Origin: an uncultured Gammaproteobacteria bacterium | GTDB lineage: Bacteria; Pseudomonadota; Gammaproteobacteria; CAZYYU01 | Assembly (NCBI GenBank): GCA_964651735.1 | Contig: CAZYYU010000004.1 | Coordinates: forward strand, 141,687 to 205,686 | Direction of reading: 5' to 3' | DNA: 64,000 nucleotides | Shown: in pieces, positions 12,008 through 12,048 of the stretch | How positions within the stretch are numbered: position 1 is the stretch's first letter | Layout of the letters: each line of letters opens with the position of its first letter | Program-made: the position numbers and the translations under genes | The notes under the pieces: generated by a model | Seen by the model: the letters and a program-made list of their open reading frames with translations, nothing else | The model's database searches: none | Told to the model about the DNA's origin: nothing

Positions 12008-12048
12008 TTGATAAAGGGGTGGCTTTCATTTCTAGAGGGCTAGTCAAA
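12008..12048. repeat. Direct repeat, left copy, bracketing the CaaX/NACHT islet
   Basis: ttgataaaggggtggctttcatttctagagggctagtcaaa here versus ttgataaagaggtgactctcatttctagggggtagtccaaa at 25414-25454. About 36 of 41 positions match, same orientation. Weaker similarity extends ~25 nt to the left. Confidence 0.75.

Follow-up and report, generated by a model that had tools for sequence, protein, structure and literature searches.

Does the pair of short, imperfect direct repeats that brackets a three-gene, effector-like block record the insertion of that block into the chromosome, and by what route might such an insertion have come about? Both copies lie in the window (the whole 64,000-nt stretch of DNA that was analysed), which derives from an uncultured, Legionella-like lineage. 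Copy c1 occupies positions 12008–12048 of the + strand (41 nt, TTGATAAAGGGGTGGCTTTCATTTCTAGAGGGCTAGTCAAA) and copy c2 positions 25414–25454 of the same strand (41 nt, TTGATAAAGAGGTGACTCTCATTTCTAGGGGGTAGTCCAAA). The sequence-only reading had described them as one motif in the same orientation, 13.4 kb apart and 45–60 nt past the stops of minus-strand genes, and this description holds in each respect: 36 of 41 positions are identical (88%) with one 1-nt indel, the copies are separated by 13,406 nt start to start, and c1 and c2 lie 59 and 44 nt beyond the stop codons of a 2433-aa gene and an amine oxidase gene, respectively. Three substitutions fall in the first 28 nt, and the 1-nt indel and one further substitution follow after. 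A weaker similarity ending in ‘cattta’ had also been claimed; the block is shared, ~20 nt to the left and separated from the core by a 3-nt gap, but the outer flanks do not align significantly (left score 22 against a shuffle mean of 28; right score 19 against 16.6). The homology is a sharp-edged stretch of 41–55 nt within otherwise unrelated intergenic DNA, which argues that c1 and c2 share descent. A perfect 14-nt palindrome (AATGCAATTGCATT, 12074–12087) lies between the 2433-aa stop and c1 and is absent from c2.

The interval between the copies contains, as had been proposed, three CaaX-ended genes and their 340-nt upstream region and nothing else. All three genes are on the minus strand. 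The first (23580–25073), whose start lies 340 nt from c2, encodes a phospholipase-like protein of 497 aa ending in CTIL and has its own sigma70-like promoter (25150–25122) and an AAGGAG Shine-Dalgarno sequence; the middle gene (19594–23517) encodes a 1307-aa NACHT protein and the last (12108–19409) a 2433-aa OTU-pentapeptide-NACHT protein ending in CKIL. The genome contains no paralogue of this three-gene module. Left of c1, next to the his operon, is a minus-strand gene for a YerC/YecD-family, TrpR-related regulator and candidate HisR (11438–11761; TIGR02531, 65.6 bits), which starts 246 nt from c1 and also has its own sigma70-like promoter (11811–11783). Right of c2 is an accessory flavin amine oxidase gene (25499–26872, minus strand), followed by a DUF4917/SIR2-like gene and a Schlafen/AlbA_2 gene. 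The two genes ending just before c1 and c2, encoding the 2433-aa protein and the amine oxidase, are unrelated to each other. The closest relatives of the amine oxidase (37–46% identical) come from MAGs and from amoeba and protist endosymbionts, mostly bacteria of the amoeba-endosymbiont type, including Paracaedibacter, Paracaedimonas, Midichloria and Nucleicultricaceae, and one UniRef name in the family is tryptophan 2-monooxygenase.

The assembly is a chimeric bin, with 29 contigs (2.2 Mb) of ~38% GC and 381 contigs (3.0 Mb) of 60–70% GC, so that genome-level statistics and the ‘relatives’ chosen for it are to be read with care; the window belongs to the 2.2-Mb, ~38% GC part. Within this AT-rich part, the similarity between c1 and c2 exceeds chance and is a real but modest signal. 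A degenerate 28-mer of the motif has 0 expected matches (100 shuffles of the window), and the local alignment of the two intergenic regions scores 55, above every one of the shuffled pairs of intergenic regions up to 30 kb apart in the AT-rich part of the assembly (n = 5,588; maximum 47, 99.9th percentile 31). An all-against-all comparison of the intergenic regions of the 2.2-Mb part (228,962 comparisons) identified only 7 isolated two-copy pairs with a score of at least 45, where an isolated pair is one whose core has no other partner in the comparison. Apart from c1/c2, three of these pairs are local: two (C8b and C6) flank paralogous genes, and the third (C8a) lies on either side of one gene in a tandem NACHT-WD40 array, with a match that extends into coding sequence. 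Given these paralogous or array neighbours, the three pairs are duplicated gene-plus-flank units, and c1/c2 is the only isolated local intergenic pair of the AT-rich part without paralogous neighbouring genes. The array itself (G000:C8:43400–97000) consists of tandem ~1,300-aa NACHT-WD40 paralogues, whose units are >90% identical in gene ends, intergenic DNA and gene starts. That two AT-rich intergenic regions should simply resemble each other by accident is an explanation to which we give very little weight. In a BLAST search of the 2.2-Mb part, the 32-nt core taken by itself and ungapped reaches an E-value no better than 0.76, and one shuffled neighbour pair did reach 47; the gapped score nevertheless lies above all shuffled neighbour pairs, the only isolated pair scoring at least 50 among ~223,000 real non-neighbouring comparisons is formed by two tRNA genes, and c1 and c2 share orientation, position and context.

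A search for further copies of the 41-mer, which the sequence-only reading had proposed, returned exactly two in the 5.26-Mb bin, using a pattern with 3 mismatches, blastn-short and nhmmer --max with a two-sequence profile. Even a degenerate third copy was not found by nhmmer --max (next best E = 7.9) or in the neighbouring intergenic regions up to 34 kb, which include the outer edge of the low-GC tract described below. Exact matches to the central 26-nt pattern (GATAAAGNGGTGNCTNTCATTTCTAG) are absent from 185,579 GTDB species genomes and from JGI metagenome contigs. With two copies only and none in these public collections, the motif is not a generic terminator, regulatory box or dispersed repeat; the scatter over many unrelated intergenic sites that would have marked a generic motif did not appear, and the att-like interpretation survives. 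A related explanation is that c1 and c2 are all that is left of a small MITE- or REP-like dispersed repeat, or a gene-conversion patch, with no link to the arrival of the module. The genome is rich in intergenic repeat families, a Y1 transposase gene is present on contig C10, and the ends of the motif are weakly inverted (TTGAT... / ...AGTCAA), all of which are compatible with such an origin. However, the inverted ends span only 4–5 nt, neither copy is surrounded by target duplications, c1 and c2 are unlike the known repeat families of this genome, and the nhmmer search yielded no third member, and we consider this origin distinctly improbable. Among the repeat families of the genome, a palindromic REP-like element (TGTCATACCGGCGGAGGCCGGTATCCAGTC...) with many copies genome-wide occurs in the window at 825–926 and 11291–11358, and the Y1_Tnp (RAYT-type) gene (G000:C10:42989–43318) lies amid dense ~200-nt repeats (GGGGTCAAACCGAGCC...GCGGTGTCAAACAAGGCTTC).

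Base composition and gene order give the two copies different settings. GC content drops from 38% to 28% at c1, which also coincides with the end of the his-yerC synteny with G287, the closest genome found via YerC (72% identity). G287 retains the his operon and yerC at ~60% amino acid identity; past yerC the gene order is no longer shared at all, and an amine oxidase orthologue is absent. The boundary in composition and synteny seen at c1 has no counterpart at c2, since the low-GC tract extends ~5 kb beyond c2, to about 30 kb. Among 1,281 long ORFs, the GC3 of the two NACHT genes falls in the lowest 1–3%, the Schlafen-like gene has an equally extreme value, and the 497-aa, DUF4917 and amine oxidase genes lie at the 9th, 14th and 15th percentiles, respectively. 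The low GC3 of the amine oxidase, DUF4917 and Schlafen-like genes places c2 inside an accessory tract rather than at its edge, and because the amine oxidase gene is itself accessory and low in GC, an ancestral site of the order amine oxidase, single repeat, trpR-like gene is not a given.

An alignment of the locus with close relatives would bear directly on such an ancestral site. In the genome set searched, class is the lowest rank at which the bin has a relative, and class- and family-level genome searches, exact-protein look-ups, searches of 5.8 billion proteins and pattern scans of contigs returned no near relative. The best homologues among the 5.8 billion proteins are 77% (YerC), 46% (amine oxidase) and 35% (497-aa protein) identical, and YerC homologues fetched with their genomic context lie in unrelated neighbourhoods. 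Distant homologues of the 497-aa protein (34–35% identical) are encoded on two metagenome contigs, followed on one (L051:1531–10970) by NB-ARC and NACHT proteins (STAND NTPases) and on the other (L052:8001–15727) by a TPR/TIR-like protein and an AAA-ATPase_like gene. Large proteins of the signalling type thus follow these homologues as well, and in this sense the gene neighbourhood of the block recurs. Neither locus has a comparable flanking repeat, the L051 module running off the end of its contig.

The sequence-only reading had noted that the module carries no integrase or transposase, and this extends to the whole 206-kb contig (C4), on which no tyrosine or serine recombinase, rve, DDE_Tnp_1 or Y1 domain was detected. 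In the assembly as a whole, tyrosine recombinase (PF00589) matches are confined to contigs C35, C18 and C9, and PF00239 has no matches. ARAGORN predicts no tRNA within 35 kb of c1 or c2, both copies are intergenic, and neither coincides with a tRNA or tmRNA gene. Target-site duplications made by transposases measure 2–14 bp. A repeat of 41 nt is far outside this range, and transposase target duplication, one of the two origins first suggested for the pair, was therefore set aside as implausible; the repeat is moreover imperfect, C4 carries no rve, DDE_Tnp_1 or Y1_Tnp domain, and no inverted repeats lie just inside c1 and c2.

The other suggested origin, an att site, was compared with the features of genomic islands and with known recombination sites. 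Direct repeats are present at both borders of the block, as in genomic islands, and there is neither an integrase in or near it nor a target at a tRNA, tmRNA or conserved-gene 3′ end; beyond the repeat itself, c1 and c2 show no positive hallmark of att sites. The best match to a dif site misses 15 of 28 positions in c1 and 13 of 28 in c2 and lacks the 11-6-11 partial-palindrome layout. Likeness to an integron attC site was likewise rejected, as neither strand folds better than shuffles and the RYYYAAC/GTTRRRY cores are absent. The all-against-all intergenic comparison revealed no other accessory block in this genome with such a repeat bracket, and hence no sign of a general mechanism. A more far-reaching possibility is that the three-gene block travels as a circular cassette without a recombinase of its own, using a dedicated ~41-nt site on which a host or helper recombinase acts in trans. 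Such a cassette would be analogous to integron cassettes, pdif modules and IMEX elements but would use an unrelated site, and it would give intracellular bacteria a new route for exchanging effectors aimed at their hosts. We regard it as very improbable.

The motif might instead act at the RNA level, serving the minus-strand transcripts whose ends lie just ahead of it as a 3′-UTR element or a transcript-end signal. It could, for instance, load Rho through a C-rich, unstructured stretch or bind a protein, having been copied once and then kept by selection at both gene ends. Position argues for such a role: the copies follow the stops of long minus-strand genes at nearly equal distances (44 and 59 nt), which would be explained by a function at the 3′ end and is a coincidence if the repeats are an insertion junction. 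The minus-strand RNA is unstructured (z = +0.8 to +1.05), the minus strand is C-rich and G-poor (11–12 C against 5–7 G per 40-nt window over the motif), neither the 2433-aa nor the amine oxidase gene has a convincing intrinsic terminator, and the core is conserved where the flanks are not. Against this, the excess of C over G is modest, sequence conservation is not usual for Rho-loading sites, a signal of general use would be expected more than twice in the genome, and it is not evident how 41 nt would have been copied to the end of a second gene. We therefore judge a transcript-end role to be unlikely, if less so than the other rival explanations. The copies themselves are neither terminators nor structured RNAs (fold z of −0.9 to +1.05 over both strands, with no terminator-like site at either copy), and no Rfam 15 family overlaps them at E ≤1. 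The stretch CACCUCUUUA was considered for likeness to the 16S 3′ end and anti-Shine-Dalgarno sequence; the AT-rich part of the bin has no assembled rRNA.

Small ORFs comprise minus-strand frames of 13–14 codons starting in the motif and a plus-strand frame of 41 aa in c2, the latter with an in-frame 3-nt gap relative to c1. A coding role was rejected as unsupported, given that c1 has no start codon, three of the four core substitutions are non-synonymous in either frame and there are no homologues. Close to c1, on the minus strand at 11985–12004, a strong Shine-Dalgarno sequence (GGAGAGG) is spaced 7 nt from an ATG-TAA start-stop pair, which directly precedes the ATG of an unconserved 58-codon ORF (11808–11984).

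The position of c1 upstream of a regulatory gene raises a further alternative, namely that the motif is a cis-regulatory DNA site (an operator, upstream activator or alternative-sigma promoter) for the minus-strand genes downstream, with c1 serving the yerC-like regulator and c2 the effector operon, and is possibly bound by a YerC/HisR-like protein. YerC represents the HisR histidine repressor family, present in Legionella and Francisella among others, whose proteobacterial consensus is the 20-bp palindrome TGTAnTArnnnnyTnTTACA, and autoregulation has been reported for roughly half of the hisR genes (Ashniev et al. 2022, PMC9413887). On its minus strand, c1 carries ACTAG-CCCT-CTAG, which has the dyad spacing of TrpR-type operators (motif in PMC9413887) and lies upstream of a TrpR-family gene. 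In addition, a sigma70-like promoter match facing the operon (TTGATT-18-TATAGT, 25456–25485, minus strand) ends 2 nt before c2, so that c2 starts 2 nt after its −10 element. However, mismatches to the specified HisR-consensus positions (6/14 in c1, 5–6/14 in c2) are at chance level, the 2.2-Mb part containing ~37,000 sites with 5 mismatches, and CTAG-N4-CTAG is itself at chance frequency (5 observed against 4.6 expected in 2.2 Mb). The 1-nt indel shifts the c1 dyad out of register in c2, and the best-conserved 28 nt lie outside the dyad. Moreover, the yerC-like and 497-aa genes have their own sigma70-like promoters 250–320 nt downstream of the motif copies, and c1 has no promoter counterpart in the register of the match at c2. 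On balance, a cis-regulatory function appears quite improbable. By-eye comparison with consensus sequences for sigma70, sigma54, sigma32, sigmaE, LetA-box, PmrA and CpxR, and for IHF, DnaA, Fur and ops/JUMPstart, gave partial half-sites only, none of which is conserved in both copies in the right orientation.

Elsewhere in the window, the hisG promoter (TTGACA-17-TAAGAT, 4544–4578) overlaps a sequence (TGTACTAGTAAGATAGCACA, 4559–4578) that matches 11 of the 14 specified positions of the proteobacterial HisR consensus, including every one in the left half; with 3 mismatches, it is a better candidate operator than c1 or c2. [quoted passage not shown] The hisR gene is here convergent and located after hisIE rather than first in the his operon.

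The simplest reading of the repeat pair is an att-like or single-crossover junction, and the pair may be an old insertion scar. We infer, tentatively, that the repeats are the junction duplication left by single-crossover integration, the reading that we prefer over each of its rivals although we give it somewhat less than even odds. Under such a scheme, the operon of the 497-, 1307- and 2433-aa genes would have come in on a circular donor, together with its 340-nt promoter region and ~41–55 nt resembling a chromosomal intergenic site; this site, upstream of the yerC-like gene, would be where the two molecules recombined. The exchange may have been the work of a recombinase that acted in trans and was later lost, or of RecA at the short homology (Campbell-type). 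The crossover would duplicate the shared stretch as a direct repeat around the insert and would need no mobility gene inside it, and the five differences between c1 and c2 could reflect original attP/attB heterology or later drift. Single-crossover integration is consistent with direct copies that bracket exactly one operon with its own promoter, and it accounts for the geometry, the uniqueness of the motif and the break in composition and synteny on the left. Points that weigh against integration are the identity of 88%, recent att repeats being usually perfect, the location of c2 within the accessory tract, the lack of a third copy at the outer edge of that tract, the lack of recombinase and transposase genes on the contig and of a tRNA or tmRNA at either copy, the lack of a similar bracket around any other accessory block, and the nearly equal spacing of the copies from a stop codon.

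On its own, the repeat pair is a small and ambiguous feature, and its main use is as a possible boundary marker of an effector-like module. If it is an integration scar, it would give the exact limits of a 13.4-kb acquired unit, consisting of the promoter region, the phospholipase-like gene and the two NACHT genes. Large effector operons in this uncultured Legionella-like lineage could then arrive without mobility genes of their own, and other accessory blocks without mobility genes in such genomes could be interpreted in this light.

Comparison with known systems places the pair closest to some and apart from others in specific respects. With HisR/TrpR operators (Ashniev et al. 2022, PMC9413887), c1 shares a position upstream of a gene of the YerC/HisR family and a CTAG-N4-CTAG dyad. 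Unlike these operators, c1 and c2 miss the 20-bp consensus, and in c2 the dyad is disrupted. Genomic islands and ICEs of the integrase-borne kind have attL/attR direct repeats, as in the tRNA-linked islands of Legionella pneumophila. The present locus resembles them in having a short direct intergenic repeat at both borders of accessory, low-GC genes of the host-interaction type, but differs in that the block has no integrase in or near it and no tRNA or tmRNA target, the repeats are only 88% identical and only one border is compositional. Recombinase-less elements that use the host XerCD system include IMEX, such as the dif/difA-flanked gonococcal genetic island, and pdif modules. The block shares with these an insert without a recombinase of its own and imperfect direct repeats on both sides, whereas the c1/c2 motif bears no resemblance to dif (13–15 of 28 positions mismatched) and lacks the 11-6-11 layout. 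Campbell-type integration, by a single crossover, places one direct copy of a shared stretch on each side of the insert and works without a mobility gene. While this route requires a circular donor sharing the stretch, and the collections searched contain neither such a donor nor any other copy of the motif, the arrangement of c1 and c2 shows exactly the geometry that Campbell-type integration leaves behind.
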